Below are positions 16,301 through 44,530 of a DNA stretch of 52,439 nt, piece by piece (position 1 is the first letter of the stretch; each line of letters begins with the position of its first letter). Made by a program: the position numbers and the translations under genes. The DNA comes from Cytophagales bacterium (GTDB lineage: Bacteria; Bacteroidota; Bacteroidia; Cytophagales; JAHDFW01). The stretch covers positions 1 through 52,439 of the forward strand of contig JAHDFW010000006.1 in assembly GCA_020627945.1 (NCBI GenBank), written 5' to 3'. Under the pieces are notes generated by a model. The model was not told where the DNA came from. It made no database searches and saw only the letters and a program-made list of their open reading frames with translations.

Positions 16301-19300
16301 TCTTTTTTAGTAACTCCAAACTCTTCGAGATACCAGCCAGTAATATTTCTTAACGCTCTATGTGGAGTTTTAACCCCCTTTGGTTTACCTGTAGAACCTG
16401 ACGTATAAATAATACATGCGGTGTTATCCAAATCAATTTCTACGTTAGGATTATCTTCCGAACTTGTAAAAACTTCTTCTGCATCAGTTGCTACCCGAAT
16501 AATTTCAGAATCGCTGAGAAACTCTTTATTCTCAGAAGTTACAAAAAATTTGGCGTTTGCAGCTTCTAGCATATATTGCACACGTGCTTCAGGGAATTTA
16601 GTATCAATACATAAAACCGCTCCTCCACTCTTTAATACAGCTAATTCTGCAATCACCATATCCAAACCAATGGATGAACGAACTCCAACCACATCTTCCT
16701 TAGTTAGACCTTGCGACAACAAACAATTAGCAAGTTGGTTGGCTCTTACATTTAATTCCTGGTAGGTTAAACTTTGTTCTTCGAACACCAAGGCAACATG
16801 ATTTGGAGAATCAACAACCACATTCTCAAAGTCTCTAATAATGTTTTTAGAAACTTTTAAGTCTCGTGTAGTAGCATTAAAATCTTTAAGTAGAAGTTGT
16901 TTCTCTGATTCAGTAATCAACGAAATTTCTCCAATTCTGCTCGTAGGATTTGTCGCCATCTCCTGCAATACCAGCACTAAACTTTCAAGCATTTTATTTA
17001 TGCTCGATGAATGAAATAATTCGGATCGATAACCAAACGTAAATCGTATTGAATCCTCAGAAACCAATGCATGAACAGTAATATCAAATTTAGCCTCTCT
17101 CTCATTAACCGTTTCCGCACTGATTTTCAACCCTGATTCCGAATCGCCCGTGTTCTCCTGAACATCCATGCTAAACATGATATCGAACAAGGGATTTCTT
17201 GAAAGATCTCGCTCAATTTGCAGTTCCTTCAGCAAGTTTTCTAAAGGAAAAGCCTCATGCTCATGACATTCAATAGTATTTTTAACTACCTCTTGAAGAA
17301 AGCTAAGAATAGAAATTTGCTCTGATGGAAAATTGCGCATTGGGATAGTATTCACAAACATCCCAACCATTGAATTAAATTCAGTTCTACCTCTACCCGC
17401 ATTAATTGTACCTAGCACTAAATCTTCTTGACCTGAGTATTTATGAAATAGAATATTTAACCCAGTTAATAATACGTTGAACAATGTGGTATTATTCTCC
17501 TGAGCTAGTTTATTCAAATGTCCAGTAAGATCTTTGTTGATCAAAACACTTTCTACTCCTCCTTTAACTGAAATAACAGAAGGTCTTTTAAAATCAAGAG
17601 GTAAAGCGAGTGACTCTGGCAGAGTAGAATAACGTGTCAACCAAAATTTTTGATCTTCTGCACCTTTCTCGGATTGGATGTGGTTAAATCTCCATTCTGC
17701 AAAATCCTTATATGTGTATTCAATTGGAGTAAGTTCTTTTCCCGAATACAACTGAATAAATTCGGAAGTAATAATTTTCATCGATGCCCCATCAGATACG
17801 ATGTGATGCATGTCAAACGCTAGATAATGCTCTGATGAATTTACCTGATATATTTCAACCTTAAACAATGATTCAGAGGATAAATCAAAAGGTTGTACAA
17901 ATTTCTTAAAATGTTCTTTGGCTTCGCTGACATTCTTAACCTGATAGTGTACCAATTTGGAATTGGTAGCAGGATTAACCACTTGAACCGGTTCGTTCTT
18001 AACAACCAGAAAAGAGGTTCTAAGACTTTCATGACGAGCAACAAGCTTATTAATCGCTTCTTCAACTTTCTCAAGGTTCAACTCACCATCTAATTTTAAA
18101 AACCCAGGCATGTTGTACTGAATGGAATCCGGAATCATTTGATGAGTCAGAAACATTCTTTTTTGAGCGGGAGATAAAACGTAGAATTCTTGATGATCAA
18201 CTTTAGGAATACTGGTTAATTTGTGATCGGTAGTAGATTCTAAATACTGAACTATACCCTTAACTGTTGGATTTAGAAATAACTCCTTAAGTGGAACTTC
18301 CACGTTCAGCGTCGACTGAATCTCACTCAACAATTCCACCGCTTTTAGAGAGTGTCCTCCCAATTTAAAGAAGCTATGGGTAAGACCAATAGATTCAACA
18401 TTTAGTATTTCTTCCCAAATTTGACAAAGTTGTTTTTCAAGATTTGATTCAGGAGCAACATACTCTAAATCTGCAGCAGATAAATCGGGAACTGGAAGTC
18501 TCTTGATATCAATTTTCCCATTGGCGGTTAAAGGGAATTCCTCAATTCTCATAACCAAAGAAGGCACCATGTATGCAGGTAGTTTTTTCCTTAATTCCTG
18601 ATCCATTAAACCAATAACATTTTCTTGATTTTTTGAATCTATCGTTACATATGCAACCAAATGATTTTCTGTACCCTCTTTATGAACCAAAACCAAAGCC
18701 TGACCAATAAACGAAAGATCATTAAGTGCTGATTGTACCTCTCCGATCTCAATACGATAACCTCGTATTTTAACCTGATTATCTTTTCGGCCTTTGAAAT
18801 TCAGTACTCCCTGTTCATCCCAGAACCCCAAATCACCAGTAGCGTACATCAAAGAATTTGAGTATTTTGATTGAAAATATTTCATTTCAGTCAGCTCCTG
18901 CTGATTCCAGTACCCTTTTGTCACTGAAGGGCCTGCAATATGAATTTCACCTATAACTCCCTTAGGACATAATTTCTTTTCATCATCTAGAATAAGAAGA
19001 GCGTTGTTGGGGATTGGTCTACCAATTGGGTTCGAAGCTATAACTAAGCCTTCCTGATAATCAAATACGCTACAAAAAATTGTACCTTCTGTTGGTCCAT
19101 ACAGAATTTTAATCTGGCTCTTAGGAAAAACATTCTGCATTTTAGGTAAGAGATCACTTGGAACTGCGTCTCCTCCAACATACACCTGCCTCATGTTCGA
19201 ACACGTTCTACCCTCTGTTTCATAAAAACGTACAACCTGGGTCATCAGAGCAGGAACTGTATGAAACAAAGTAGACTGATCTAAAACTTCTAATAAAGAT

Positions 19301-22300
19301 TCTTTTTCTAACACCTGATCTTTATCCAAAAGGATAGTCTTACCACCTTTGATCATTGCATTAAACAGCTCAAAAAATGATATATCAAATGCGTGAGAAG
19401 CTACAAAGGGCATCACATCACTTGATTTTATCTTATTAAGATGGTCTATTTCTTGAAGAAAAGAAGCAAGGTTCCCATGATTAACTAATACTCCTTTAGG
19501 TTTACCAGTACTCCCTGATGTGTAAATAATATAGGCATTATCTTCAGGTTCTATTTTTGCTAATTCAGAACTAACCTCCACTGTACTTAGGTCCTTGAAT
19601 AATTCCTTTACTTGAAGCTCTTCTACTGAACTAGAATATGTATTTTGACTATTGGAATCAGTTATTATTATTTTAGCTCCGCTATCTTCGACGATATGCT
19701 TAACCCTTTCTTCAGGATATTGTAGATCAGCAGGAACATAAACCGCACCTGCTTTCATTATTGCAAGCAGACATTCCACCAATTCCAAGCTCCTACTCGC
19801 ATATAGAACTACCCGATCACCTTTACTTACGCCTAAATCAATAAATTTGGAAGCCAATTTTGAGGAGTTATCTTCCAACTCGGCAAACGTTCTCGTAAGT
19901 TCACCATATTCCAGTGCAATACCTTGAGGGTTCTTGAGGGCTGCCTTGGAAAATAGAGAGATCAAATTGTTATTAATATCTATTTCTAGTCTAGCACCAG
20001 TACTACTTAAAACGACATCTTGTTCTTCTTCAGAATTTAGCAGCTGAATATCACCTATTGATTTAGCACTAACTAATTGCTCTAAGACCCTAACGTAAGA
20101 GCTGCTTAATCGTTGGATTGTGGATTCTCTAAAAAGAGAGGTGGCATAATTGAAATTAATAGATAGGCCTTCAATGTTTTCAGACGTTGTTAAACTTAAA
20201 TCAAATTTCGAAATGCCAGATGGATTGCTCATTTGCTCAAACTTCACCTCATCAGATTGTATAACCTCGCTTTCCAAATTCAGTAGAGAAAACATGGTAC
20301 TAAAAAGAGGATTTCTGGCTGGATTTCTTTCCAAGTTTAAATCATCTATAAGATCCTCTAATTGATATTCTTGATTTTCGACGGCCAGCATGCTAGTTTC
20401 AGCAACTTCTTTAACGTATTGGGATATAGTCTTACTCGAATCAGGTTTGGACCGAATTACCAGCGTATTTACGAACATTCCAATCATGCGATTCACCTGA
20501 GCCATTGAGCGACCAGAAGCTGGCGTACCAACTATTATATCATTTATGCCAGAATAATTACTTAGTAAAATCTTGTACGCACTAAGCAAAATCACAAAAA
20601 GCGTAGTATTGTTATCGCTAGCCAAATGACGTAGTTGTTCTGTCAAAGAATTATCTACGAAAGTAGAAGTCCAAGCTCCATCAAACTGCTGAATTGCAGG
20701 TCTATTAAAGTCATATGGTAATTCAAGAATCGGTATTTCATCCTCAAATTGATTTAACCAAAAAGCACGTTGCTTTACTAATAACCCACTTAAAAGTTGT
20801 TGCTGTTGCCATTCAGCATAATCATGATACTCGAGATCCAGAAGGGACAATTCAATCCCGTGATAGAGTTGAGTAAATTCCTCCATTAATATATTAAGAG
20901 AAATACCATCCGCAATGATGTGATGAATATCACAAAATAGGATAGATACATTATTGGGCGTCTTCAATAATTTGAAACGAAAGCAAGGTCCCTGCTCCAA
21001 ATTAAAAGGTTGAATAAAAGTTCTTAAAAAATCATAATCGGACGATTCACAAGCTTCCTGATGCAATTCAAACGAACTTTCTTCATAAATTTGCTGAACA
21101 TTTTTACCATTCTTCACATGAAATGTAGTTCGTAATGCAGAATGTCTCTTGATCAATTTTTCAAAGGCCAAATTGGCTTTCTCCCAGTCCAATGATCCTG
21201 TAACCTTAATGAACATTGGCATGTTATAAGCTACACTCTCTGGATCCAATTTGTACAGAAGCCACATTCTACTTTGAGCAGAGGATTGCAAATAGAACGG
21301 TTTAAGGTCCGAGAAAGGAATAACTTCTTCTGCATTCAAACCAGTTTCCAATTCCTCAAATTCTCCAGCAAACAATTCAATTGTGGGATTAGCAAAAAGC
21401 ATTTTAACCGATGCCTCCTTATTGGTCTGTTCTCTTACTAAAGTAATCAACCTATTTGCCAACAATGAATGACCTCCTAACTCGAAAAAATTATCTGAGA
21501 CACCAATTTGTTCTTTCTTAAATACATCCTGCCAAATCTCAACTAACAGTTTTTCAGCTTCTGTCCTTGGAGCTTTATAGACATTAATTCCAGAGTAATA
21601 TTCAGCTGCATTGGGAAGACTTTTTCGGTCTATTTTCCCATTAGATGTCAAAGGAAAGTGGTCTAGACGAATGATATAAGAAGGAATCATGTAGGTTGGC
21701 AAATCCTTCTTCAAATGGTCTTTAAGTTCACTTTCGTCAAATGCATCTGGATTACAAACCACAAATGCTACAATATATTTTTCCAGGTTCTCGGGATTTG
21801 CCTGATCCAAAACCAATACCTCCTGGATCGCTTGATGCTGCCCTATCCTACTTTGAATTTCTCCTAATTCAACCCTATAACCTCTAATTTTAACCTGATA
21901 ATCATTTCTTCCCTCGAAATATAAATTCCCATCATAACCCCACTTGGCTAAATCACCTGTTCGATAAATAAGTCCTTCTCCATAGGGATTGGACACAAAT
22001 TTCTTTTCATTTAGGTTTTCTCGATTCCAATAACCTTTAGTAACAGATGTACCTGCAACGCAGAGCTCTCCTATTACTCCTTGAGGGCAGACTTTCAGCT
22101 GATCATCTAATACGAATATCCTGCTATTAGGTATAGCTCTACCTATAGGATTTAGATGGATTTTTTCGGTTTTCAGGTAATCATAGACACTACAGAAAAT
22201 CGTTGCTTCAGTTGGACCATAAAGTATTTTAACCTCTGCATTCGGAAAAACGGCTTGTATTTTAGGTACTAATTCGGACGGCACTGCATCTCCACCTACA

Positions 22301-23844
22301 AATGTCATTCTCATATTTTCTGCCACTTTACCGTTCTGTTCAAGGTAAGTAACGACCTGAGACATAAGTGCAGGTACCGTATGAAACAAAGTACATTGTT
22401 CTATTACTCCAATAAATTTATCGTTATCGAGTATTTGATCTTTGTCCAACAGAATAGTTTTTCCTCCACTCAGAATGGCCCCAAACAACTCAAAAAAAGA
22501 TATATCGAAAGCATGAGAAGCCAGAAATGGCATCACATCATGAGTACCGAACTTAAAGTTCGCTTTAACACTTGCTGTAAAAGAATCTAAATTACCATAA
22601 GAGACCAATACTCCTTTAGGTTTACCGGTACTTCCAGAAGTGTAGATTATATACGCGCTGTCATTAGATGTAATATCGGTGTTAAGATTTGCTGCAGAGT
22701 ATAATTCCAGGTTTTGAGTAATGGAATTGATGGTTAGGATTTCAACTTCCACACTTTCCAATGTTAACTCCGTTTGGTCTGTCACAACGTATGTCGCACC
22801 ACAATCTTCCAGCATATAATTTACTCTATCCTTAGGATATTGTAAATCAGCTGGAACATAAACCGCCCCAATTTTAAAAATGGCTAGAAGCACCTGAACT
22901 AAAGAAAGCTCTCGGTTTACATACAAAACTACACGATCTCCTTTAGTAACTCCTAGCTCTTGAATTTTTCGAGCTAGTTGATTGGACTTTGAGTTTAGTT
23001 CGGCGTAGGTAATTTGCTGTTCTTTAAATTCCAGACAAATCTTATCCGCATATTGGTGTGCCATCTTTTCAAACTGATGCACAAAACCTTGACTTTCTTT
23101 ATAATCTAATACAGCACCTTTACCTAAATTCAGAATTTGATCTTGTTTCTGGTCTTGCAAAAAATTAAAATCCCGAATCGGTAGATCCATACAATCCACT
23201 ATTCGTTGCAAAAAGTCTTTTAACAAAGTACTGAAGTCATTCAACCATTGCGGGTGATACATAGTTGGATTGAAATGAAAATCTAAAGAATCATCTTGTC
23301 TCAGTATAATTCTCAAATTATGACTCCAATCATTGTGCTCCAGTTCATGCAAATTCTCTAGCAAAAACTGTACATCAGGAATTGCCCAACCTTCTCGTTC
23401 AATTACATTTCGACATTCTTCACCTTGATTTTGAAAGGCTCCTACCACATTTTCCTTCACTTTGGCAAGAACCTGCTTGAAAGAATATTGGTTACTTATT
23501 TCGGTAGTTAATACCAGAGGATAACTTTCTGAAATTTTAGAATTGACCCTAAACGAGTTAGAAGATATCGTAATAAAATCCTGCCTCAAATACTGTTGAA
23601 GTAAAACCTTTAAAGCAGAAGAAACAACCGTAAATAAAGCCAAATCAGATTTTGCCAAAACAGACCTCACTTTACTCAACTCTAACTGGCATGAATAAGA
23701 ATCAAAATCAAGTTGATTTTGTTTATCAGCAATAAGACCAAATTTTAATGTTGAAAAATCAGGTGCTTTATCATGGTAAACTTTATACCAATATTCTTCC
23801 CTTATCTTCTGTTTTAATAAAGATTCCTGAGCCCCCGACGACAT
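1396..23844 (-). CDS. Nonribosomal peptide synthetase, single 7482-aa polypeptide; domain order C'(half)-A1-T1-C2-A2-T2-C3-A3-T3-C4-T4-C5-A5-T5-C6-C7-A7-T7-C8-A8-T8-C9
   Basis: An unbroken 7482-codon frame in an AT-rich sequence. There are seven GGHSL carrier motifs, with Ser at aa 793, 1832, 2859, 3405, 4451, 5918 and 6968. There are six adenylation cores (YTSGSTGKPKG-type, YGPTE, Y.TGD, KIRG.R.E.GE, NGK.D). There are eight condensation His motifs at aa 974, 2013, 3040 (PHIISDG), 3593, 4636, 5071, 6101 and 7149. Spacing between T serines is about 1030-1050 aa for normal modules, 546 aa where no A domain is present, and 1467 aa where two C domains are present. Confidence 0.98.
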   Translation of the reverse strand: MSSGAQESLLKQKIREEYWYKVYHDKAPDFSTLKFGLIADKQNQLDFDSYSCQLELSKVRSVLAKSDLALFTVVSSALKVLLQQYLRQDFITISSNSFRVNSKISESYPLVLTTEISNQYSFKQVLAKVKENVVGAFQNQGEECRNVIEREGWAIPDVQFLLENLHELEHNDWSHNLRIILRQDDSLDFHFNPTMYHPQWLNDFSTLLKDFLQRIVDCMDLPIRDFNFLQDQKQDQILNLGKGAVLDYKESQGFVHQFEKMAHQYADKICLEFKEQQITYAELNSKSNQLARKIQELGVTKGDRVVLYVNRELSLVQVLLAIFKIGAVYVPADLQYPKDRVNYMLEDCGATYVVTDQTELTLESVEVEILTINSITQNLELYSAANLNTDITSNDSAYIIYTSGSTGKPKGVLVSYGNLDSFTASVKANFKFGTHDVMPFLASHAFDISFFELFGAILSGGKTILLDKDQILDNDKFIGVIEQCTLFHTVPALMSQVVTYLEQNGKVAENMRMTFVGGDAVPSELVPKIQAVFPNAEVKILYGPTEATIFCSVYDYLKTEKIHLNPIGRAIPNSRIFVLDDQLKVCPQGVIGELCVAGTSVTKGYWNRENLNEKKFVSNPYGEGLIYRTGDLAKWGYDGNLYFEGRNDYQVKIRGYRVELGEIQSRIGQHQAIQEVLVLDQANPENLEKYIVAFVVCNPDAFDESELKDHLKKDLPTYMIPSYIIRLDHFPLTSNGKIDRKSLPNAAEYYSGINVYKAPRTEAEKLLVEIWQDVFKKEQIGVSDNFFELGGHSLLANRLITLVREQTNKEASVKMLFANPTIELFAGEFEELETGLNAEEVIPFSDLKPFYLQSSAQSRMWLLYKLDPESVAYNMPMFIKVTGSLDWEKANLAFEKLIKRHSALRTTFHVKNGKNVQQIYEESSFELHQEACESSDYDFLRTFIQPFNLEQGPCFRFKLLKTPNNVSILFCDIHHIIADGISLNILMEEFTQLYHGIELSLLDLEYHDYAEWQQQQLLSGLLVKQRAFWLNQFEDEIPILELPYDFNRPAIQQFDGAWTSTFVDNSLTEQLRHLASDNNTTLFVILLSAYKILLSNYSGINDIIVGTPASGRSMAQVNRMIGMFVNTLVIRSKPDSSKTISQYVKEVAETSMLAVENQEYQLEDLIDDLNLERNPARNPLFSTMFSLLNLESEVIQSDEVKFEQMSNPSGISKFDLSLTTSENIEGLSINFNYATSLFRESTIQRLSSSYVRVLEQLVSAKSIGDIQLLNSEEEQDVVLSSTGARLEIDINNNLISLFSKAALKNPQGIALEYGELTRTFAELEDNSSKLASKFIDLGVSKGDRVVLYASRSLELVECLLAIMKAGAVYVPADLQYPEERVKHIVEDSGAKIIITDSNSQNTYSSSVEELQVKELFKDLSTVEVSSELAKIEPEDNAYIIYTSGSTGKPKGVLVNHGNLASFLQEIDHLNKIKSSDVMPFVASHAFDISFFELFNAMIKGGKTILLDKDQVLEKESLLEVLDQSTLFHTVPALMTQVVRFYETEGRTCSNMRQVYVGGDAVPSDLLPKMQNVFPKSQIKILYGPTEGTIFCSVFDYQEGLVIASNPIGRPIPNNALLILDDEKKLCPKGVIGEIHIAGPSVTKGYWNQQELTEMKYFQSKYSNSLMYATGDLGFWDEQGVLNFKGRKDNQVKIRGYRIEIGEVQSALNDLSFIGQALVLVHKEGTENHLVAYVTIDSKNQENVIGLMDQELRKKLPAYMVPSLVMRIEEFPLTANGKIDIKRLPVPDLSAADLEYVAPESNLEKQLCQIWEEILNVESIGLTHSFFKLGGHSLKAVELLSEIQSTLNVEVPLKELFLNPTVKGIVQYLESTTDHKLTSIPKVDHQEFYVLSPAQKRMFLTHQMIPDSIQYNMPGFLKLDGELNLEKVEEAINKLVARHESLRTSFLVVKNEPVQVVNPATNSKLVHYQVKNVSEAKEHFKKFVQPFDLSSESLFKVEIYQVNSSEHYLAFDMHHIVSDGASMKIITSEFIQLYSGKELTPIEYTYKDFAEWRFNHIQSEKGAEDQKFWLTRYSTLPESLALPLDFKRPSVISVKGGVESVLINKDLTGHLNKLAQENNTTLFNVLLTGLNILFHKYSGQEDLVLGTINAGRGRTEFNSMVGMFVNTIPMRNFPSEQISILSFLQEVVKNTIECHEHEAFPLENLLKELQIERDLSRNPLFDIMFSMDVQENTGDSESGLKISAETVNEREAKFDITVHALVSEDSIRFTFGYRSELFHSSSINKMLESLVLVLQEMATNPTSRIGEISLITESEKQLLLKDFNATTRDLKVSKNIIRDFENVVVDSPNHVALVFEEQSLTYQELNVRANQLANCLLSQGLTKEDVVGVRSSIGLDMVIAELAVLKSGGAVLCIDTKFPEARVQYMLEAANAKFFVTSENKEFLSDSEIIRVATDAEEVFTSSEDNPNVEIDLDNTACIIYTSGSTGKPKGVKTPHRALRNITGWYLEEFGVTKKDHTAKYAGFSFDISNMEIVSNLVAGSTLHLIPEEIRLDMGALNSYLEKNQISIIFIPTQACELFLEQKNNSLRYLLTGGDKLNKFESGSFELVNVYGPTENTIISTTYHVRKNYVNIPVGKPIFNNQVYILDKELKLVPVGMQGEIYLGGDNLSSGYINPEIDSSERFIQNPYFPEQVMYKTGDVGRWIEDGNIEFLGRSDHQIQIRGFRVEPGEIEHVILEQPKITECAVIPYKDGSGLYYLCAYLVYSDLLDLEGLKKHLQEVLPYYMVPSYFIELDQIPLTPNGKIDKQLLPQPDAVGNNLEEEYVAPSSIIEIQLVQIWEQVLEKEQVGVTDNFFRLGGHSLKVIELLGEVSKQLGVEIAYSKLFEFPTVQKLAENFENFKEVSASLIGSSEELEFYPLSPAQQRMFLTTQLSRNSIQYNMPAMLQLEGEIDLESLENAIITLFERHEGFKTSFEMKGGVPVQKIVENVDFELKKTSVDSFLDAKKHFKDFVKPFDLSHPPLLRAEFLKLEKEKGYLMFDMPHIISDGGSMQILTSDFLNLIKGEELEPLSVQYKEYAQQQSRKRELPQFQVEREYWLNQFNVLPETLALPLDFNRPSHIGHEGGSYYLKVDSSILEKLNLVSEQLQLTPFTLVISALSIVLSKYSGQEDLVIGTASSGRKHPDLKRVLGMFVNTLPIRLRPEKNLRIEDYLFLVKNQTVNAFENQDYPFEELVAELDIKRDLARNPLFDVMLNVLTFEDLNVESSEALMVSKIESGSEVAKFDITVSASLSKTNLAFQFNYRKDLFREATIENLANGLQQVLEAFGADQNVVLGDLLLLTSEEFEEIRSKSSKLDHYNIVGNTTAKHEFSAPKSQTEIDLYKIWTKVLEKNDFGIDDSFFELGGHSLRGATVIASAQNKWTSELRLLDLFEYPTVRTLALKIDQLVDHSMGSTNVKDIPLLPNSDFYEVSAAQKRLWLLDKILDGSSEYNMTFKQKLPDDSDLKLVKQALISLVERHETLRTSFQEIDGVPMQKINAVDSAFLQVIEHHDSGFELLLENHFQQEVNHDFNLEKGPLFRCALLTGEQSYLIFNLHHIITDGWSLDVLRSDFKELYESLVEGRDHNLPELKVQYKEFGHWQNKRLASDEFKAAKSYWHNALSGELPVLQLPVDYAQKTRLKNSGSSFSFSLSSSSQAKMNKFIKGQNSSLFMFLNAALKITLFEITGQQDLIIGTPSAGRTHEQLKYLNGFFLNTLVLRSQIDPEFTFEQFYREIKKDTVKALEYQEYPFEQLVEELNVPRDLNRFPIASVFLNVLNYGETKNVESHTKDKKHRTNDIPTKFDLNIYVSEFPDGIGFNCLYKNELYRPESIELIFEKFEKLIDQIVDHPSIKIQDVLQRNVTWTGDVSDMDWYSPERNLIDRFEFVAKQYSGRLAIGGRNELWTYKDLLNKVNAVVKDLIDQNIFNQPIGISCSHDERMVIALLAVLKSGNHYVPIDPSYPNYRIEQIIKTVDLNCLITDEDNESRCNDFGVQFDHVWILDSKLPKEEVEVTTPNLSVSNLAYILFTSGSTGVPKAIAQTHGAVMHFISNYSTLMEIDSNDRLTGFSSINFDSFVNDVFGALLNGASYWPHSFKNSTDLVELGDWLIQNNITIWHSVPSVFKEFANSNLHRSFDAIQTFKMTGEATSYSNYQLFESISNEKAKFVVSYGSTESTLNTFNQFTRYNGPVKNSLSAGKPVGRTEIKILSEHGTLVGDLSYGEILVYSPYVTSGYLDQEVLNEASFIQIDGKRFFKTGDLGRFNVDGELEVSGRKDFQVKIRGVRIDVQEVQHSMTNLPQIEQAVVLNHTKEGDDFLIGYYIGEETDFMEIRTVLATRLPEVMIPTDFVLMDKFPRTPNGKIDRSSFPSYNLDGIKKEEFEQPFEGLESELAAIWKELLQVDQVGRNSNFFQLGGHSLKATQFAAKFKAQEGLTIPLRVLFENPTIKMLASAIQNLGNGVLATSTLDSPIESPVKDLYSTTAAQNNFYFLHHKYPDSNIFNMPSLEYLGSDVEYLSIQEALELLIERHEPLRTSFVQHGQDVMQKVHDWVDFKLEHVRIKSSELDSVVTKYTQPFYLDQAPLYRAALVETDEQQFYLFHDIHHIISDGSSRQRLTNEFKNLLKGEILPTQGLQYKDYSEWINEQLKAGNLNDQREFWLKKLSGKLPSVALETDYPRGSGQYFEGGMYNLELDSELTDLVREFCAKNQMTLYMVLLAGYQLLLHKQTGEKDIIIGSPVAGRTEEAFQNTMGLFISTVLMRNKPKPELSFIEFINQVKKESIQAFENQLYPYDVLLNDLQIKTEPGRNPLTDFSLIVQNMLGKEELNNVSALDDTFEVTNSAKVDLTMYAFEHREKIMLRVEYKSSLYKPETIKSYLRQFKLLLKEGISNPKRRIGDLSGGGNNKHLAGLSHAQRRIYFTEKIYENTSVNNTAFLIGLSENVDHELLKEAFRHVVNQNQALRLRIKVVDGNSEPYQYVSPPLDEINVESIKCGLNGEEHLKREVLEPFAQTTFNLEGGPLFAFKIVEFKDQTMYLVNLHHLIGDGWTIFLVCDQVYKALEVLKSGDKPHSEPLPDYLDFVENERKYLNSDASVEHLKFWKQHLLPIPERSSFIPAPKSDSLKSDHLAIAFESNIRQDLLRYCEESGMSLYKILLTALSVFLRSYNENYEDEVIIGGVNHGRSSKIDQDTSGMFVSTIPVKVKVEQTSSFDTLLQEVSDILNPILKQYQKYPFDLLAEELRRQHNIDANELLNVNLIGHQDVHEDRYSMQYGYPGYDSSPLSIHINESNKNIKGILELTWSYQKRFFDKDDIESLHQRFVMLLSNLISKPKEDLSRIALMDQNERDLILTQFNNLSWKYSNDSVVQQFEKQVEQSSDKVALKFEDRTMTYFELNSEANKVAHYLIQKGAGRDTLVGILMEPGFEMFASIWGILKSGAAYLPLDPEYPQDRVEFILNDAQPLLVITDKETIRDSRYVFYNNSEVQNQSSGNPKVQFNPESLSYVIYTSGTTGQPKGCLIEHRNLSSYVEAFQKEFALNHEEVVLQQTRYTFDAFVEEFYPAQLVGGQIVIAKREQVTDLDQLEYLLRSNKVSMITCSPLLLNELNKLTSFQSLKICISGGDVLKPSYVSNLKNYATIYNTYGPTEGTVCVTYQKYTNHDTDFIQIGKPINNTYVLVLDEYLRLQPTGVPGELVIGGAGVARSYLNREKLTHDRFIQSPFDSKERLYRTGDLVQWNHNGELQFLGRTNDQVKIRGYRIEPQEIEQCLLEIAEVKEAVVVALEQDNQEKFLCAYLVGDGIKLPDVKPFLRKSMPEYMIPTHVMEIDSIPLTRHLKVDKKALPLPELNVVEVQLPTNHTEQKLVQIWSEVLGVDQERLSTVSSFFDVGGHSLKAMSLVNSIKKHFAVNITLANVFNNPTIQDLAIYIIAQNSSESKDEFIPRVFNADAKYELSAAQQRMYFLNRFDEQSTFYNMPAIMEIEGELDVNKVIESFQGLVDRHESLRSNFIAEGEHNYQVINDRVNLTINVHSVTEEEAEDIVKSFVRPFNLADDVLIRVEILRIATNRHVLLVDLHHIISDGNSIQILVKEFKQGYAGVINDTEPLQYKEFAHWQNDRRRKGEFEQLENYWKGQLDGELPLLQLPLDYSRPKVQKFNGNDVSLSIPSELLDKFKTICADSNVTLFAGLLSIYKILLSKYTGQYDLIVGIPSAGRVHSDLDRTIGMFVNSLAIRTYPDVKLNFNDYLNQVAQTYLAAIEHEEYQFEEIIELLDVPRDPSRNPIFETMFSLLNYREQEPSKENKIRENLILKPFGSTKKVAKFDLSLDLRELKDQLVGTLTYATHLFDKQTIQRMADGFVLLLESIVAEPKSKISDLSVVAVQSITDLVPKNSHKNKVISNEKVFVDLIQNQANLVSDNVALKFRDVEWTYSTLFHRVNVLAAMLGSKYGLGDRVVVHMSRGPELTATILALLKLGLVYIPIDVDYPTERKEYILNDSKAKLIISNVASGLNMQSIDQIDLTKFNWNQEATINARSVKHSDIAYVIYTSGSTGKPKGVEVSHGNLFNFASSLDEVNGLTENDLLPFMASNAFDISFFEQFAALLKGGGTLILEKEDLLDSSLLVEKLKVCTVFHTVPALMRQIVDSINTLDIRSDFNHIKQVCLGGDLVPNELLHDLTSTFVNAKITVFYGPTEATVFCTAYDFDPKIELHGNVIGNPTSNNQILILDDALKAVPHGVWGEICIGGPQVTQGYLHREELTKDRFIENPYDQGVVYRSGDLGRWNRKGELEFGGRKDSQVKIRGYRIELGEIESAINQLEGVGESLVIVTQNTETNDKLIVAYVRDLEDSQGLSEEFIRDQLRHQLPEYMIPSIVVLVESFELTQNGKINRRKLPDPFLALNEVESGVLTLPSTKLEKALVNLWTRVLGVDVIGMESHFFQIGGHSLKATQLSNLVREEMNLPLSIKDIFLSPVLKDQVELLKINKPILIDPIRPLEPQDSYPLSHAQQMLWVSYLREGASSTFNIPLAFNIQGQLNFEAFERMIFYMVQRHEILRTRIIDSSGVPSQIIEEPNYVKTELVEIDQKELKKALSTHANQSLDLLNDVLFKVSVFKVDDNQYAVGLNMHHIISDGWSMELFMKEAMQVYATFDAGKEPSLQPLKIQYKDFASWHNALIADGSEVGLSEFWKNKFSGKVKPLQLPTFQDRPTEKTYKGDRHVFELSIEESRKLTKLVKHHWNTSEFIVMQTVMSILLYRYSGQNDIVIGTPVSGRNRAELQNQIGYYVNMLALRNEVQSNHSFIELLQEVKAQTLEVFDRQDYPFDKLLDDLKPERDDSRLPLVNEGLSWNDFGDLSEHGSGDSPDQVNDLTIKPVSTKLNFAKYDLWLYGTLSREMFRFAFEYNTDLFTEEQVKEFSEAVLNIIKEVVRNPEIKIAEIKLVEQTENTSIEEREEGEDFDFDF
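1480..2784 (-). other. NRPS terminal condensation domain C9, followed by a short acidic tail
   Basis: SHAQQMLWV, RHEILRTRI, HHIISDGWS (aa 7149-7155, nt 2380-2400), IGYYVNMLALR. The protein ends ...EEREEGEDFDFDF with no GxSxG thioesterase or reductase. Confidence 0.85.
2815..3018 (-). other. NRPS carrier domain T8
   Basis: FFQIGGHSL; Ser6968 codon at 2941-2943. Confidence 0.85.
3022..4557 (-). other. NRPS adenylation domain A8 (paralog of A1/A2)
   Basis: AYVIYTSGSTGKPKG (Lys6577 at 4114-4116), ASNAFDISFFEQF, FHTVPALM, YGPTE, YRSGD, GRKDSQVKIRGYRIELGEI, NGKINRR. Confidence 0.85.
4615..5922 (-). other. NRPS condensation domain C8
   Basis: SAAQQRMYFL, RHESLRSNF, HHIISDG (aa 6101-6107, nt 5524-5544), GMFVNSLAIR, RNPIFE. 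Confidence 0.85.
5965..6171 (-). other. NRPS carrier domain T7
   Basis: FFDVGGHSL; Ser5918 codon at 6091-6093. Confidence 0.85.
6175..7707 (-). other. NRPS adenylation domain A7
   Basis: MTYFELN, SYVIYTSGTTGQPKG (Lys5545 at 7210-7212), YGPTE, YRTGD, GRTNDQVKIRGYRIEPQEI. The A10 motif is variant, RHLKVDKK, with the Lys retained. Confidence 0.85.
7720..9030 (-). other. NRPS condensation domain C7 (second of the C-C tandem)
   Basis: It starts right after the linker DLSGGGNNKH (nt 9031-9054). Motifs: LSHAQRRIYF, QNQALRLRI, HHLIGDG (aa 5071-5077, nt 8614-8634), SGMFVSTIPVK. Confidence 0.8.
9055..10323 (-). other. NRPS condensation domain C6 (first of a C-C tandem)
   Basis: TAAQNNFYFL (C1 motif without the usual Arg), RHEPLRTSF, HHIISDG (aa 4636-4642, nt 9919-9939), MGLFISTVLMR, RNPLTD. 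Confidence 0.8.
10366..10572 (-). other. NRPS carrier domain T5
   Basis: FFQLGGHSL; Ser4451 codon at 10492-10494. Confidence 0.85.
10576..12126 (-). other. NRPS adenylation domain A5 (divergent)
   Basis: LAYILFTSGSTGVPKA (Lys4072 at 11629-11631), YGSTE instead of YGPTE, FKTGD, GRKDFQVKIRGVRIDVQEV, NGKIDRS. Confidence 0.8.
12145..13461 (-). other. NRPS condensation domain C5
   Basis: SAAQKRLWLL, RHETLRTSF, HHIITDG (aa 3593-3599, nt 13048-13068), NGFFLNTLVLR. Confidence 0.85.
13510..13728 (-). other. NRPS carrier domain T4 (follows C4 directly, with no A domain between)
   Basis: FFELGGHSL; Ser3405 codon at 13630-13632. It lies only 546 aa after the T3 serine. Confidence 0.85.
13825..15105 (-). 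other. NRPS condensation domain C4 (His motif variant PHIISDG)
   Basis: SPAQQRMFL, RHEGFKTSF, MFDMPHIISDG (Pro3040-His3041, nt 14707-14727), GMFVNTLPIR, RNPLFD. Confidence 0.85.
15139..15345 (-). other. NRPS carrier domain T3
   Basis: FFRLGGHSL; Ser2859 codon at 15268-15270. Confidence 0.85.
15349..16881 (-). other. NRPS adenylation domain A3
   Basis: LTYQELN, ACIIYTSGSTGKPKG (Lys2487 at 16384-16386), YGPTE, YKTGD, GRSDHQIQIRGFRVEPGEI, NGKIDKQ. Confidence 0.85.
16891..18186 (-). other. NRPS condensation domain C3
   Basis: SPAQKRMFL, RHESLRTSF, HHIVSDG (aa 2013-2019, nt 17788-17808), GMFVNTIPMR, RNPLFD. Confidence 0.85.
18220..18426 (-). other. NRPS carrier domain T2
   Basis: FFKLGGHSL; Ser1832 codon at 18349-18351. 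Confidence 0.85.
18430..19992 (-). other. NRPS adenylation domain A2 (paralog of A1)
   Basis: AYIIYTSGSTGKPKG (Lys1448 at 19501-19503), ASHAFDISFFELF, FHTVPALM, YGPTE, YATGD, GRKDNQVKIRGYRIEIGEV, NGKIDIK. Confidence 0.85.
20005..21303 (-). other. NRPS condensation domain C2
   Basis: SSAQSRMWLL, RHSALRTTF, HHIIADG (aa 974-980, nt 20905-20925), GMFVNTL, RNPLF. Confidence 0.85.
21340..21543 (-). other. NRPS carrier (T/PCP) domain T1
   Basis: FFELGGHSL; Ser793 codon at 21466-21468. Confidence 0.85.
21550..23112 (-). other. NRPS adenylation domain A1
   Basis: ITYAELN, AYIIYTSGSTGKPKG (Lys408 at 22621-22623), YGPTE, YRTGD, GRNDYQVKIRGYRVELGEI, NGKIDRK. Confidence 0.85.
23125..23844 (-). other. 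NRPS N-terminal half condensation domain (C-terminal lobe only, no catalytic His motif)
   Basis: aa 1-240 align to the post-HHxxxDG half of the other C domains. EEYWYKVY..APDFSTLKF resembles YW...L..P.L.LP, and LFTVVSSALKVLLQQY resembles TLF..LL.AY..LL. The segment ends in the linker-like IRDFNFLQDQKQDQIL. There is no SxAQxR, RHExLRT or HHxxxDG. Only 159 nt of non-coding DNA lie upstream. Confidence 0.6.
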
Positions 23845-24003: not shown

Positions 24004-24396
24004 TTATTCCTTTGTGAAATACTCTATAAAATCTCTTACACTTAACATTTGCGTAAGCAAACTATCTGGCAAAGGTTTTTCAAACTCCTTTTCAAACTCC
24101 ATTACCAATTCAATCTGGTCTAATGAATCTGCACCAAAATCATCGAATATATCATCGTCAAGAACCATCTCTTCCTTTTCAACTCCTAGTTTATCAACGA
24201 AGATATCATAGGCAACTTGCTCTGGAGTTCTATTGGCCAAGGCCTGAGCTTTTTCAATAGAATCACGCTTCGGATAAGTCCAAATTCCATCCTGATGATG
24301 ATATACAGAATCGGGTAACGGATCAGGGTTTACAAAATTTCGTTCAAAAAATGTCTTTTTTTTCAGCTTCCTTGCTAGTATCGGCTTGTTGTTCAC
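24004..24396 (-). CDS. Free-standing acyl/peptidyl carrier protein (ACP-like) with an N-terminal extension of about 55 aa
   Basis: The C-terminal ~75 aa match the ACP fold and phosphopantetheine site: IFVDKLGVEKEE....FGADSLDQIELVMEFEKEF. The only canonical start in frame is GTG at 24394-24396, because an in-frame stop sits at 24412-24414. It lies 54 nt downstream of the UvrA-like gene and 159 nt upstream of the NRPS. Confidence 0.8.
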   Translation of the reverse strand: MNNKPILARKLKKKTFFERNFVNPDPLPDSVYHHQDGIWTYPKRDSIEKAQALANRTPEQVAYDIFVDKLGVEKEEMVLDDDIFDDFGADSLDQIELVMEFEKEFEKPLPDSLLTQMLSVRDFIEYFTKE

Positions 24397-24450
24397 AAGA
24401 TTTTGTCGCAGTTAACAACACCGAAATAATTATTAAAAATCTCATCGTAC

Positions 24451-27400
24451 TTACTTTAATTTTCCTGATTCCAGCCTATATACTTTTTGTGCTGCTTCAA
24501 TCATTGTTTGATTATGTTCAATAAAAATCAATGTGTCTCCTTTCTCAACAATTGACCTAAACACTTTAATTAATTTAATCACATCAAAATAATGAAGTCC
24601 AGTACTGGGTTCATCGAAGAGATATAAGGTTATCCCTTTTCTCTTTTGAATTAGGGAATTTGCTAGTTTCAACCTTTGGGCTTCTCCGCCAGATAATGTG
24701 TTTCCTGCCTGACCAAGAATCAAATGTCCAAGTCCTAAATCCACTAAAATCTGTAATTGCTCAATCAACGGTTCGGTTTCAAAAAATCGAATTGCTTCAC
24801 CGACCGTCAAATCTAATACCTGACCTATATTAAGAGCTTTCCACTTAACTTGCTGTACGTTCTCATTGTAGCGTGTACCATTACAAATATCGCAGTCCAA
24901 CCAAACATCACTCATAAAGTCCATGCTAGTTTTTACTTTTCCATGACCTGCACAGTTGGAACATTTCCCATTCTTACTTTGGTAAGAAAAATCTGCTTTT
25001 TTGAGATTTTGATTTTTGGCATCCTCGGTTTTAGAAAAGAGCATTTGAATTTTCTCAAGCATCCCTAAATAGGTCACTGGCGTACTCAATCGATTCTGTA
25101 AAAGTAATTCCTGATCAATCAGTAAAACATTATCAAATTGATCCAAACCGTAAATCTCATCGCATTCGATTGGTCTGCTTTTTAAATATGATTTATACAA
25201 AACATCTTTGACCAAACTAGATTTACCACTTCCTGAAACTCCTGTAATCGCAATTAACTGTTGTGATTGAAATTCAACATTTATCTTCTGAAGGTTATTT
25301 GCACTGGCACCACTAATTCCAAATGCAAGTCCCTCTTGAGTATCTATTAAGATTTGTTTGGAAGATTCTTGAAGCATTTGGTATGTGAGAGATTGCTTCT
25401 CGTTAAAAACACCTTCCGTCACACCTTGATAAATTACCTCCCCTCCCTCTCTACCTGCACCTGGTCCTAGTTCAATTAGATAATCTGCTTCCTGAATAAA
25501 TGTAGGATCATGCTCGACCACAACAACAGTATTCCCGTTAGCAACGACCTTTTTCAACGCTTTTGTTAAAACTTTAATCTGAACACTATCTAAGCCGATT
25601 GTTGGTTCATCTAACACATAGGTAACTCCAAATAGATGTGTTGACAATTGGCCTGCCAACATAACTCGTTGCCTCTCTCCTCCTGACAAAGTAGCTATTG
25701 AACGGTCTAATGTTAAATATCCAAGTCCGAGAGCCTTCATCGTATTTAAAGTAGTCTCAACCGCAGGAATCACTTTTTTCACAATTGCTTTTTCTACGGA
25801 ATCAGAATGAACAAAATCCTCTCCCAATAAAACTAACAACTCTGAAATATTTAAGCTCGTAAATTGATGAATATTCTTTCCTTGAAACCTTATATCTAGT
25901 AATTCTTGCTTCAAACGGCCACCACCACAAGCATTACAAATCACTGGATTTAGCAATTCTTCTAGAGACTTAATATTCTTATTTAATTTCTTGCGTTCAT
26001 ACTCATCATCAATATAACCACAAAATCCTAACCATTTTGCTGAAACGGCTTGAACACCAGAGCGAGATTTAGTCTTGAATTCCCACTCCGTATCCCAAAC
26101 CTGATCTCCTGTTCCATGCAAAATTATATTTTGAACATGCTCCGACAACTTACTCCAAGGTTCATTAAGATCGAACTGATTCTTTCTAGCTACTTCCTTA
26201 AGAATGGCTACAAACTGACCATCGGGGTTTGAATAATACCCTATTGCCTTGTTATTAGAAATTGCCCCATCTAAAATGGTTTTTGAGTGATCTATAATAA
26301 TCTCATCAGGATCGCAAGTTAGAATATTCCCCACTCCTTCACATTGAGAGCATGCACCTAAATGATGATTGAAAGAAAAATGTTGTGCTGAAAATTCAAC
26401 GCCCGTACTCTGTGCAATTCTTGAATACAAAAGACGAAAAGACTCATATGCTCCAGATAAAGTACCAACTGTGGATCTTTTTGAAGCCCCACCTCCTTTA
26501 CGATTAATTCCAATGGCTGGACCTAATCCTGAGAAAGATTGAATTTGAGCAACATTCGTCTGGTTTACAAAACTTCGACTGTATACGGAAAGAGACTCCA
26601 AAAATCTCGTATTCGCTTCCGAAAATAATGTATCATATACTAGTGACGATTTTCCACTTCCCGAAAGACCCGTAACTACTGTCAATTGGTTCTTTGGAAT
26701 CCTTACGTCAATATTCTTTAGCCCATGGGTTTCAACTCCATTTAACACAATATTTTTGGTGAAACTATTTATAGTCTTAGCTTGCAATAAAGGGGGCACA
26801 ATTCTTTCTCGATTAGGAACTCCTTGAAATACTATAGTTCCTCCTTGCTGACCTCCCGTAGGTCCAAGTTCGATATGCCAGTCGCATGCTTCAATAATGG
26901 ACTCATGTTGTTCTATACAAACAATTGTATTCCCATTCTGTTTGATTCTTTCAAACATTGCGAGCAATGATTGAATATTGGAATAGTGTAATCCAATGGT
27001 TGGTTCCACTATAATGTAAAGAGTATCTCCAGTATCTTTTTTCTGAAGTTGATTGGCAATTTTTATTCGTTGCGCTTCACCACCAGACAATGTGGTTGAT
27101 GATTGACCTAATGTGAGGTAGCCCAAGCCTATCTCCTGCAAGATTTCCAATCCAGACAGAATTTTATTTTGACCCTCAAAAAAAACTATAGCTTCATTAA
27201 TGGACAATTTATAAATATCCGCGATGGACCTTCCTTGGTACCTAACACGCAACGTATCTTGATTAAATCGATCTCCATTACAATCACCACAAATTAAATC
27301 TACGTCACCAAGAAAGTGCATTCCGATTTGTGTTTTGCCTGCGCCCTGACAAGTTTCACATCTTCCCCCCTTATTGTTAAAAGAAAATCTAGACTTCGAA

Positions 27401-29193
27401 TATCCAAAAGACTTAGCATCGGATTGCTTAGCAAACAAATCGCGAATATGATCTGAAATATTCAAGTAGGTTGCGGCATTACTTCTAGGTGTTTTTCCTA
27501 TTGGTGAATGATCTATAAAAATCAGTTTATCAATTTTATTCAAGTTCTCAATACTAGTTATTGCACTTGAATCATAATTCTGTCCATCGAGAAATTGAGT
27601 AACCGACTTTAACAAAATTTCTTTCACTAGGCTTGATTTTCCTGAACCAGAAGGACCACTGACTACGTTAAATTCACCTAGACGAAATTCAACGTCAATA
27701 TTCTTCAAATTTCTGGTTCTACAACCTATTAATTTTAAAGCATCTCCATTTGAAACCGTAGAACTCTTCTCAATTTTAGATACTGGATTTACAAGCGCTT
27801 CGTAAGTTGGGCTTATACTTTTGAGGGTTTGATCTTTGATAAAATTCGATAATTCACCATTATAAATCAGTTCTCCTCCATGCACACCTGCTTTTGGTCC
27901 TATTTCGATTATATGATCTGCATTCCGTATGGTTTCTAAATCATGTTCAACTACAATGACCGTATTTCCCTTCTGCACCAATTTCCTTAGCTGATAAATC
28001 ATTCGGTGCTTCTCGTCCAAATCCAAACCAATTGAAGGTTCATCGAAAATATAAAGCACGTCACTTAAAGGCATTAAGATTTGATTAGCGACTCTGAGTC
28101 TCTGTATTTCACTTGATCGAAGAGTATTCGAAGGTCTATTCAAAGTTAAATGTCCTAAACCAAGATCAACCAACACGTTTATTTTAGCACTAATTTTTTC
28201 TTTAATTTTCAGCCCTACTTTGTTCCACTTATTAGCATTTATCCAATTCTTTAATTCATGCAATTCGAAACTCGACACTTCCGCTATTGTAGCTCCATTA
28301 ACATATACACTTAAAGCATCTTGATTTAAACGTGTCCCATCACATGACTGACACACAACCGAGCTTACATATTTTAGAATATTGGCGTTTCGGTCTCTTC
28401 GAAGAATGTCCGACATAATCGGCATCATTCCTCTATAATACCCTTCTTCTCTAGGTTTAGCTTTAATCCCAGTCCACTTAAGGCGAGATTCTAAACTGTG
28501 TTTACCAAATGGAACTTTTATTTTCTCACTTCCATAAAGGATCACTTTCTGCTGTTCATTGGTTAGTTCGTCCCAAGGTATGTCCACGTTAAATCCTTCT
28601 GCTTCACAAACCTGATTAAGAACATCTATGGTTACTTGTGAATACATTATATATCCTGTTGGAAGGGTTGGTGCCAAAGCTCCTTCCCTTAGCGTCTTTT
28701 CAGGATGCACTACGAGCTTATTTAAATCAATTTTCTCCTCGTTCCCAATTCCATTACATTGCTGACATTTACCTGCTACTGAATTAAATGAGAAAAGTGC
28801 TCTAGACAACTGAATTTCACGATCTGTTGTACCTGTTCTTGCAAACAACAATCGAAGCAAACCATAAAGATCGGACATAGTGCCTACCGTCGATCTGGCA
28901 TGCATTCCAGAAGTTTGTTGACCTATAGCAATTACAGGAGAAAGGCCTTCTATTTCATCAACATCTGGACGGTTTAACTTTCCTACAAACTGGCGTGCAA
29001 AAGAAGGAAGAGTTTCGAAATACCTTCGTTGACCTTCCTTAGCTATTATATCAAAAACTAAACTTGATTTTCCTGATCCAGAAATCCCTGTAACAACGAT
29101 AAATTTGTTGTGAGGAACCTTGAGAGATACGTTTTTGAGGTTATTAGTATTCGCCCCTTTGATAGAAATATTCGCATGCCTATTCAAATTCAT
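24451..29193 (-). CDS. Tandem-fused double UvrA-like ABC ATPase (two complete UvrB-binding-domain-less UvrA units in one 1580-aa protein)
   Basis: Four Walker A sites: GISGSGKSS (Lys42), GPSGSGKSS, GLSGSGKSS (Lys848 at 26650-26652) and GVSGSGKSS. Signature motifs: LRSSE (degenerate), LSGGEAQRIKIANQL, LSGGERQRVMLAGQL, LSGGEAQRLKLANSL. UvrA-type CxxC zinc modules are present in each half: CQQC/CQSC/CETC..CGDC and CSQC/CNAC/CSNC..CDIC. In both halves the LLFARxG-like segment runs almost straight into LFSFN...C..C, so the ~135-aa UvrB-binding insert of canonical UvrA is missing. Confidence 0.9.
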   Translation of the reverse strand: MNLNRHANISIKGANTNNLKNVSLKVPHNKFIVVTGISGSGKSSLVFDIIAKEGQRRYFETLPSFARQFVGKLNRPDVDEIEGLSPVIAIGQQTSGMHARSTVGTMSDLYGLLRLLFARTGTTDREIQLSRALFSFNSVAGKCQQCNGIGNEEKIDLNKLVVHPEKTLREGALAPTLPTGYIMYSQVTIDVLNQVCEAEGFNVDIPWDELTNEQQKVILYGSEKIKVPFGKHSLESRLKWTGIKAKPREEGYYRGMMPIMSDILRRDRNANILKYVSSVVCQSCDGTRLNQDALSVYVNGATIAEVSSFELHELKNWINANKWNKVGLKIKEKISAKINVLVDLGLGHLTLNRPSNTLRSSEIQRLRVANQILMPLSDVLYIFDEPSIGLDLDEKHRMIYQLRKLVQKGNTVIVVEHDLETIRNADHIIEIGPKAGVHGGELIYNGELSNFIKDQTLKSISPTYEALVNPVSKIEKSSTVSNGDALKLIGCRTRNLKNIDVEFRLGEFNVVSGPSGSGKSSLVKEILLKSVTQFLDGQNYDSSAITSIENLNKIDKLIFIDHSPIGKTPRSNAATYLNISDHIRDLFAKQSDAKSFGYSKSRFSFNNKGGRCETCQGAGKTQIGMHFLGDVDLICGDCNGDRFNQDTLRVRYQGRSIADIYKLSINEAIVFFEGQNKILSGLEILQEIGLGYLTLGQSSTTLSGGEAQRIKIANQLQKKDTGDTLYIIVEPTIGLHYSNIQSLLAMFERIKQNGNTIVCIEQHESIIEACDWHIELGPTGGQQGGTIVFQGVPNRERIVPPLLQAKTINSFTKNIVLNGVETHGLKNIDVRIPKNQLTVVTGLSGSGKSSLVYDTLFSEANTRFLESLSVYSRSFVNQTNVAQIQSFSGLGPAIGINRKGGGASKRSTVGTLSGAYESFRLLYSRIAQSTGVEFSAQHFSFNHHLGACSQCEGVGNILTCDPDEIIIDHSKTILDGAISNNKAIGYYSNPDGQFVAILKEVARKNQFDLNEPWSKLSEHVQNIILHGTGDQVWDTEWEFKTKSRSGVQAVSAKWLGFCGYIDDEYERKKLNKNIKSLEELLNPVICNACGGGRLKQELLDIRFQGKNIHQFTSLNISELLVLLGEDFVHSDSVEKAIVKKVIPAVETTLNTMKALGLGYLTLDRSIATLSGGERQRVMLAGQLSTHLFGVTYVLDEPTIGLDSVQIKVLTKALKKVVANGNTVVVVEHDPTFIQEADYLIELGPGAGREGGEVIYQGVTEGVFNEKQSLTYQMLQESSKQILIDTQEGLAFGISGASANNLQKINVEFQSQQLIAITGVSGSGKSSLVKDVLYKSYLKSRPIECDEIYGLDQFDNVLLIDQELLLQNRLSTPVTYLGMLEKIQMLFSKTEDAKNQNLKKADFSYQSKNGKCSNCAGHGKVKTSMDFMSDVWLDCDICNGTRYNENVQQVKWKALNIGQVLDLTVGEAIRFFETEPLIEQLQILVDLGLGHLILGQAGNTLSGGEAQRLKLANSLIQKRKGITLYLFDEPSTGLHYFDVIKLIKVFRSIVEKGDTLIFIEHNQTMIEAAQKVYRLESGKLK

Positions 29194-32280: not shown

Positions 32281-32379
32281 ATTTACAACCTATGTACACC
32301 AATACCTCCAACAACACCATCGAGAAATACGCTGTTACTATCAAAGACGCCTTTAACTACCCTTTTCTCAAATCAAAAT

Positions 32380-33933: not shown

Positions 33934-33942
33934 ACCCCGTAA

Positions 33943-42119: not shown

Positions 42120-42162
42120 ACGAATTTCAATATTTTGGATAATTTAATAATGAGTCTGTTTA

Positions 42163-44511: not shown

Positions 44512-44530
44512 AACTTTACTTATTAGGGGG

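Follow-up and report, generated by a model that had tools for sequence, protein, structure and literature searches.

A double-length UvrA without UvrB-binding domains beside an orphan peptide synthetase in a Cytophagales bacterium belongs to a conserved Bacteroidota family

UvrA proteins of class I carry in each unit two ATP-binding cassette (ABC) nucleotide-binding domains, an insertion domain and zinc (Zn) modules 2 and 3, with the UvrB-binding domain (PF17760) and Zn module 1 inserted in signature domain I. Class II proteins keep the UvrA core but lack both of these insertions, and are single units of ~750–850 amino acids (aa) that form homodimers. Ecm16 (PDB 7SH1) and DrrC from Streptomyces also lack the UvrB-binding domain and keep the insertion domain, and both are single units found inside known DNA-intercalator clusters. 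Ecm16 binds DNA, needs its ATPase, works without UvrA, UvrB, UvrC and UvrD, and cannot complement uvrA (PMC9328131; PMC10192343), and it depends on its insertion domain for binding DNA and for drug discrimination (PMC10192343). Drug self-resistance UvrA-like proteins, a group to which MtrX also belongs, are typically encoded in the cluster of a DNA-binding natural product and give ATPase-dependent tolerance to the cognate drug. UvrA paralogues of this type serve as markers in mining for DNA-intercalator clusters (PMC10413001). Here we describe a double-length UvrA-like gene on the minus strand of contig JAHDFW010000006.1 from a Cytophagales bacterium, the entire 52,439-nucleotide (nt) contig being the window of this analysis. 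A first-pass annotation had proposed that the gene protects its host from the product of an adjacent giant non-ribosomal peptide synthetase (NRPS). Our data suggest that it is probably the local copy of an ancient, vertically inherited single-chain double UvrA paralogue of the Bacteroidota with a general, UvrB-independent function on DNA.

The gene is an intact frame of 1580 codons and a stop, and could be divided into two units as follows.

24451..29193 (−): fused double UvrA-like open reading frame (ORF); ORF call, translation and profile matches.
26779..29193 (−): N-terminal UvrA unit, aa 1–805, class II-type architecture; alignments to PDB UvrAs.
24451..26778 (−): C-terminal UvrA unit, aa 806–1580, class II-type, C-terminally shortened; PDB alignments, with the C-terminus taken from the family alignment.
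26752..26811 (−): inter-unit linker, aa 795–814, ~8–9 aa longer than in most relatives; family alignment.

The profile matches and PDB alignments confirmed the earlier description of two UvrA-like units arranged head to tail in one chain (~aa 1–805 and 806–1580), which share 35.7% identity over 777 aa. The NCBIfam UvrA equivalogs TIGR00630 and NF001503 match the protein in four stretches, with scores that exceed the cut-offs. NF001885 (PRK00635), a model of a ~1809-aa type that likewise has two UvrA units per polypeptide, gives 954.4 bits against a cut-off of 3054, well short of an assignment. The annotation had called both units complete. The C-unit is not fully so, being C-terminally shorter than class I UvrA, as all members of the ~1590-aa family described below end shortly after the last H-loop.

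The two units were run individually against the full set of PDB sequences. With class I UvrA (9gxk, 3pih, 2r6f, 3zqj), each half gives an alignment in two pieces, and at the break the query advances from residue ~123 to ~117–129 while the class I chain advances from ~140 to ~270–281, showing that both halves lack ~130–140 residues, those of the UvrB-binding domain together with Zn module 1. In contrast, D. radiodurans UvrA2 (DrUvrA2; 2vf7) gives a single continuous alignment for each half (9–794 to 16–823 and 13–740 to 18–775). A Pfam scan of aa 90–300 and aa 895–1100 found no match to the UvrB-interaction domain PF17760 even at E ≤ 10, and the precomputed Pfam list for the protein does not contain it either; the only Pfam match in these two regions is the insertion domain PF17755. 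The junctions and the insertion domains are located as follows.

28756..28854 (−): N-half junction LLFARTG...FSFNSVAGKCQQC, aa 114–146, at the class I site of Zn module 1 and the UvrB-binding domain, ~12 aa here; translation, PDB alignment and Pfam.
28495..28728 (−): N-half insertion (UvrA DNA-binding) domain PF17755, aa 156–233; Pfam.
26341..26433 (−): C-half junction LLYSRIA...FSFNHHLGACSQC, aa 921–951, UvrB-binding domain absent; translation, PDB alignment and Pfam.
25978..26313 (−): C-half insertion (UvrA DNA-binding) domain PF17755, aa 961–1072; Pfam.

The absence of the UvrB-binding domain from both halves had been read from these junctions in the first-pass annotation, and it is borne out by the alignments to class I UvrA and DrUvrA2 and by the Pfam scan. 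The interval nt 28783–28845 given there for the N-half junction peptide covers just part of it, the full peptide being aa 114–146. Neither half has the PF17760 and Zn module 1 insertion of class I, and both have the class II core without it. Judged from its sequence, the protein should be unable to bind UvrB through the known interface and, as the domain is absent from both halves, to act as the canonical UvrB-loading UvrA of nucleotide excision repair (NER), in agreement with the annotation.

In architecture each half belongs to the UvrA2/DrrC/Ecm16 type. The alignment of DrUvrA2 (2VF7/2VF8) to each half is unbroken and runs over its whole length (E=1.5e-152 and 2.3e-131), and the domain set is the same, namely two ABC domains, the insertion domain and Zn modules 2 and 3, with neither UvrB-binding domain nor Zn module 1 (PMC5128194). 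The double UvrA differs from it in having two 36%-identical units per chain, one degenerate ATP site and a shortened C-terminus, so that the single homodimer-forming unit typical of class II is replaced by a 1580-aa chain of two diverged units. Each half scores higher to class I UvrA than to DrUvrA2, with bit scores for the N- and C-half of 644 and 556 to class I, 513 and 443 to DrUvrA2, and 426 and 379 to Ecm16. No other solved relative is as far from either half as Ecm16. The class I proteins of E. coli, G. stearothermophilus (2R6F) and T. maritima (3PIH) are the best matches (E ~1e-190 and ~1e-165) and have in common with the two halves the class I core set of two ABC nucleotide-binding domains per unit, insertion domain, Zn2 and Zn3, whereas the halves are without the ~130–140 residues of the UvrB-binding domain and Zn module 1.

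The protein belongs to a large family. A search of 5.8 billion proteins gave at least 120 clusters of 1578–1660-aa homologues with 64–68% identity over 99–100% of the query. These ~1590-aa doubles span Saprospiraceae, Cytophagales and Flavobacteriales, with named sources including Saprospiraceae, Fulvivirga, Ekhidna, Roseivirga, Cyclobacteriaceae, Crocinitomicaceae, Dokdonia, Kordia, Polaribacter, Lewinella and Neolewinella. A genome scan with one genome per species found 15 related loci, three of them on complete chromosomes; CP170456.1, CP121319.1 and OX044359.1 are complete genomes with the fused gene. One locus binned as Gammaproteobacteria (L010, JBLHIB010000045.1) carries a 58%-identical member of the otherwise Bacteroidota family, explained either by mis-binning of the contig or by horizontal transfer. 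A paper on a Fibrivirga genome (PMC11354047) shows that several uvrA paralogues can be present in Cytophagales.

Double UvrAs are also common beyond this family. In a profile-free search of 1.84 billion 50%-identity representatives, the best 150 matches to the N-unit are almost all of double length (1450–2340 aa). The doubles of ~1570–1680 aa have no insert at either junction, and of the representatives of 1450–1700 aa, 54 out of 56 are without an insert at both. Many doubles of ~1750–1960 aa (e.g. P0242 and P0255), unlike the ~1590-aa family, keep a ~135-aa insert at the UvrB-binding position of one unit, so that fusions of a class I-like with a class II-like unit also exist. The 1580-aa protein falls within the fused class II + class II type of ~1570–1680 aa. 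The double UvrA is thus a known and abundant kind of UvrA paralogue; the literature searched contained no description of a name or function for it, and the label 'class III UvrA' is said to have been applied to double-length UvrAs by Goosen and Moolenaar in 2008.

The age of the fusion was examined by splitting 57 divergent doubles at the junction and comparing the units with their nearest relatives. The nearest relative of an N-unit is another N-unit in 55 of the 57, and that of a C-unit is another C-unit in 54, showing that the fusion predates the divergence of these ~57 clusters and that the units have been distinct since. On this grouping the fusion is ancient, and the term 'tandem-duplicated' in the first-pass annotation, which suggests a recent event, does not apply.

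The ATP sites and zinc ligands were then compared within the family, with motif states read from an alignment of 120 homologues. The four Walker A sites and the departures from the UvrA consensus are listed below.

29062..29088 (−): proximal-site Walker A, N-half ATP-binding domain I (GISGSGKSS), aa 36; motif search and family alignment.
27631..27657 (−): distal-site Walker A, N-half ATP-binding domain II (GPSGSGKSS), aa 513, GK[ST] kept; motif search and family alignment.
26644..26670 (−): Walker A of C-half ATP-binding domain I (GLSGSGKSS), aa 842; motif search and family alignment.
25216..25242 (−): Walker A of C-half ATP-binding domain II (GVSGSGKSS), aa 1318; motif search and family alignment.
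28108..28122 (−): degenerate ABC signature I of the N-half, LRSSE for LSGGE (L-R-[A/S]-S-E in the family); family alignment, site assignment after PMC6486640.
27001..27021 (−): Walker B, N-half domain II, degenerate (LYIIVEP), with Val for Asp (I, T or V in the family, never D); family alignment.
26908..26913 (−): H-loop of N-half domain II, EQ for EH (Gln in 120/120); family alignment.

The four Walker A sites and the UvrA-type zinc modules that had been noted in each half were both recovered. The chain contains four Walker B and four signature positions, and eight CxxC pairs at aa 143, 281, 612, 635, 948, 1086, 1411 and 1434, which form Zn modules 2 and 3 of each half and are invariant in the 120 homologues. 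Signature I, Walker B-II and H-loop II of the N-half are altered in all 120 relatives, and the other three ATP sites are canonical. As the distal site of UvrA combines ATP-binding domain II with signature domain I (PMC6486640), all three changes map to a single composite site, the distal one in the N-half. With its Walker A kept, this site probably binds nucleotide without hydrolysing it. A non-hydrolysing site of this sort would resemble the degenerate sites of heterodimeric ABC proteins. In some of the more distant doubles all four sites are canonical; in many the loss of the N-half distal site goes further, and in a few the loss instead affects the distal site of the C-unit. The new points in these results are modest, namely that one ATP site is degenerate throughout the family and that the distinction of N- from C-units is ancient.

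Together, these features suggest how the double UvrA could work. The two class II-type units, joined by a short linker, would pack like the two protomers of a UvrA dimer, and this pseudo-dimer would form one DNA-binding groove from two insertion domains and two Zn3 fingers. The parts involved in DNA binding are kept in both units, including the insertion domains, the Zn3 fingers and all eight Zn-ligand CxxC pairs. Of the four composite ABC sites, three would be catalytic and the distal site of the N-half non-hydrolysing, which would make the ATPase cycle asymmetric. By analogy with Ecm16 and DrrC, the protein would most likely scan DNA and respond to bulky ligands or distortions itself, UvrB not being loaded, and do so as a general chromosomal function.

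We next considered the genes around the double uvrA in the window, of which the following two lie downstream.

24004..24396 (−): stand-alone ACP-like ORF, 54 nt downstream of the double uvrA; domain matches, given for context only.
1396..23844 (−): 7482-aa NRPS, 159 nt beyond the ACP-like ORF, judged to be an unrelated neighbour; Pfam, database search and self-mapping.

The giant NRPS next to the gene had been noted in the first-pass annotation. Its Pfam stretches comprise nine C (condensation-type), six A and seven PCP domains, and self-mapping gives the order A-T / C-A-T / C-A-T / C-T / C-A-T / C-C-A-T / C-A-T / C, i.e. a seven-module linear assembly line that includes a C-T module without an A domain and ends in a terminal C. 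No thioesterase domain was found in the NRPS, and its first ~250 aa match no Pfam family and show just a weak C-like trace. This layout is not that of the quinomycin type. The NRPS is an orphan with at most 36% identity to any of the 5.8 billion proteins, and no orthologous cluster was found above that value. The ACP-like ORF has a GADSLD serine motif, is extended at its N-terminus by ~60 aa, and its GTG start is uncertain. A few nt past the uvrA stop begins a 32-codon ORF (MRFLIIISVLLTATKSC...), which encodes a lipoprotein-like signal peptide and overlaps the ACP-like ORF in another frame (window 24004–24450, −). The double uvrA, ACP and NRPS genes are all on the minus strand, separated by 54 and 159 nt, and the intervals between them showed no terminator-like site. 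Counts from the promoter and terminator scans did not exceed those expected from shuffling, and a search of the intergenic regions for TAnnTTTG, the −7 motif of Bacteroidetes, gave no match.

Upstream of the double uvrA is a type IX secretion cargo cluster with PorP/SprF, an OmpA-like gene and an fn3/malectin protein, which places the gene between two blocks that are unrelated, the other being ACP–NRPS on its downstream side. The upstream cluster is a triad at 29230–34950 (−) of PorP/SprF, OmpA/PD40-type and fn3/malectin cargo genes. A paralogous triad of PorP/SprF, OmpA/PD40-type and GEVED/PKD/CHU_C cargo genes lies at 41100–47173 (−), and a further CHU_C cargo gene at 35076–38126 (+).

The proposal that the double UvrA was recruited to the NRPS cluster as a dedicated self-resistance protein, which would shield the DNA of the producer from a DNA-binding non-ribosomal peptide in the way that Ecm16 acts against echinomycin, draws on its position immediately upstream of ACP and NRPS on the same strand, on the loss of the UvrB-binding domain from both halves as in DrrC and Ecm16, and on the finding that UvrA-like genes inside actinobacterial clusters mark producers of DNA intercalators (PMC10413001). 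However, the evidence from related loci does not support it. The window proteins were compared by tblastn with 20 related loci, of which 19 are distinct, taken with as much as 10 kb of flanking DNA per side, and no NRPS or ACP homologue was found in any of the 19 (0/19). Whereas Ecm16 and DrrC are single units inside clusters for DNA intercalators, the double UvrA is fused and comes from Bacteroidota, and all 19 loci lack an association with a cluster, the NRPS being adjacent here but in none of them. The 64–68%-identical homologues occur in genomes without this NRPS, which itself has no orthologue, and the contrast between a conserved family and an orphan neighbour implies that uvrA and the NRPS have different histories. 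In addition, each half is closer by bit score to class I UvrA than to DrUvrA2 or Ecm16, the NRPS is a linear seven-module line ending in C, no aromatic chromophore genes were seen in the window, and the type IX secretion block on the other side places uvrA at the edge of the cluster. Nothing in the window points to a DNA-binding product. With at least 120 conserved clusters of relatives as well, we consider the self-resistance role improbable and the adjacency to the NRPS probably coincidental.

The annotation had itself counted conservation at the same place in relatives without the NRPS against its proposal. The conservation is present in substance, but not the same place, since gene order around the fused uvrA is conserved within the Fluviicola/Crocinitomicaceae clade and not outside it, the pattern that vertical inheritance of a chromosomal gene would give. 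Annotated neighbours elsewhere include MetRS, TIM/PrmA/ClpS, type I restriction–modification (R-M) genes with GmrSD, glycosidases and others. In the Fulvivirga marina locus (L002, 177–9883), the fused uvrA lies directly downstream of HsdM, HsdS, HsdR and a GmrSD-family endonuclease. An insertion of the NRPS between conserved neighbours was also considered and is unsupported, as the 207- and 165-aa ORFs downstream of the NRPS are unrelated by tblastn to the ORFs of the same size in locus L017.

Some observations weigh against the reading of the gene as an ordinary family member with a general function. Among the matches listed from the 5.8 billion proteins there is no relative above 68% identity, which leaves room for a lineage-specific recruitment to the cluster. 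Given the shared strand, the short gaps and the lack of a terminator-like site, co-transcription of uvrA, ACP and NRPS in this organism is possible. The role suggested for the fused family is drawn by analogy. Finally, the C-terminus of this copy is unusual.

24454..24477 (−): atypical C-terminal tail RLESGKLK (last 8 residues); family alignment and DNA inspection.

At this position, 112–118 of the 120 relatives carry L-G-P-G-S-G, and this copy is the sole sequence of the 120 that does not run 6–29 aa further. As the tail sits at the border with the ACP–NRPS block, it could indicate a decaying or non-functional copy whose C-terminus was damaged when that block arrived alongside. A frameshift was ruled out, the DNA showing substitutions and an earlier in-frame stop. 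The 1580-codon frame is intact, and the other conserved motifs, the eight CxxC pairs and the three canonical ATP sites are all kept, which makes decay highly improbable.

The main alternative to a general UvrB-independent function is that the double UvrA is an accessory repair sensor, which would pass lesions to a partner other than UvrB, e.g. a small GIY-YIG nuclease, or modulate NER or mutagenesis as proposed for the UvrA2 proteins of Pseudomonas putida and Xanthomonas. In four loci of the Fluviicola clade, L004 (9551–9838), L005, L008 and L012, a 95-aa ORF with a GIY-YIG nuclease domain shares the strand of the fused uvrA, lies ~160 nt upstream of it and is conserved at 75–82% identity. These four loci, the conservation of the insertion domains and Zn3 fingers in both halves, and the minor UV and mutagenesis phenotypes of class II UvrAs (summarised in PMC9328131) are consistent with such a role. 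However, the GIY-YIG neighbour is limited to one clade; none was found in the window or next to uvrA in the other loci, where the only match is a weak one ~7 kb away in L001. No conserved partner gene across families was found in the related loci, and deletion of uvrA2 in D. radiodurans has no UV phenotype (PMC9328131). We therefore regard the accessory role as possible though unlikely.

Membership of a MADS-type anti-phage defence system was suggested by PADLOC matches to mad3 (E=2.7e-116, in four stretches) and mad8 (E=4e-48), and by the position of the Fulvivirga marina homologue directly downstream of type I R-M and GmrSD genes. The matches, however, cover generic UvrA-type nucleotide-binding domains, all four of which match mad3, suggesting that MADS contains domains of this type. 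No methyltransferase or other defence gene was found among the window ORFs, and most related loci are not defence islands. As the companion mad genes, which in MADS include a methyltransferase, are absent from the window, membership was rejected, and we give a defence role of this kind almost no credence.

The favoured reading, a local copy of an old Bacteroidota paralogue, can be taken further. The family might be a phylum-wide, UvrB-independent DNA guardian of aerobic Bacteroidota with a regulatory ATP site enabled by the fusion, here perhaps co-opted as an immunity gene against a DNA-binding product of the NRPS; we think this rather unlikely as a whole. If it were true, the fusion would have let one ATP site turn non-catalytic or regulatory, allowing an asymmetric cycle that is impossible for a homodimer.

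For genome mining, these results indicate that the loss of the UvrB-binding domain fails as a marker of DNA-intercalator clusters in the fused family of Bacteroidota, which consists of ordinary chromosomal genes that are conserved, and that adjacency to a biosynthetic cluster is by itself weak evidence. The pipeline name 'excinuclease ABC subunit UvrA' likewise overstates what the sequence supports for double UvrAs. In summary, this large and old fused family, with its pattern of three active sites and one degenerate site, offers a natural system for the roles of the proximal and distal ATP sites of UvrA.

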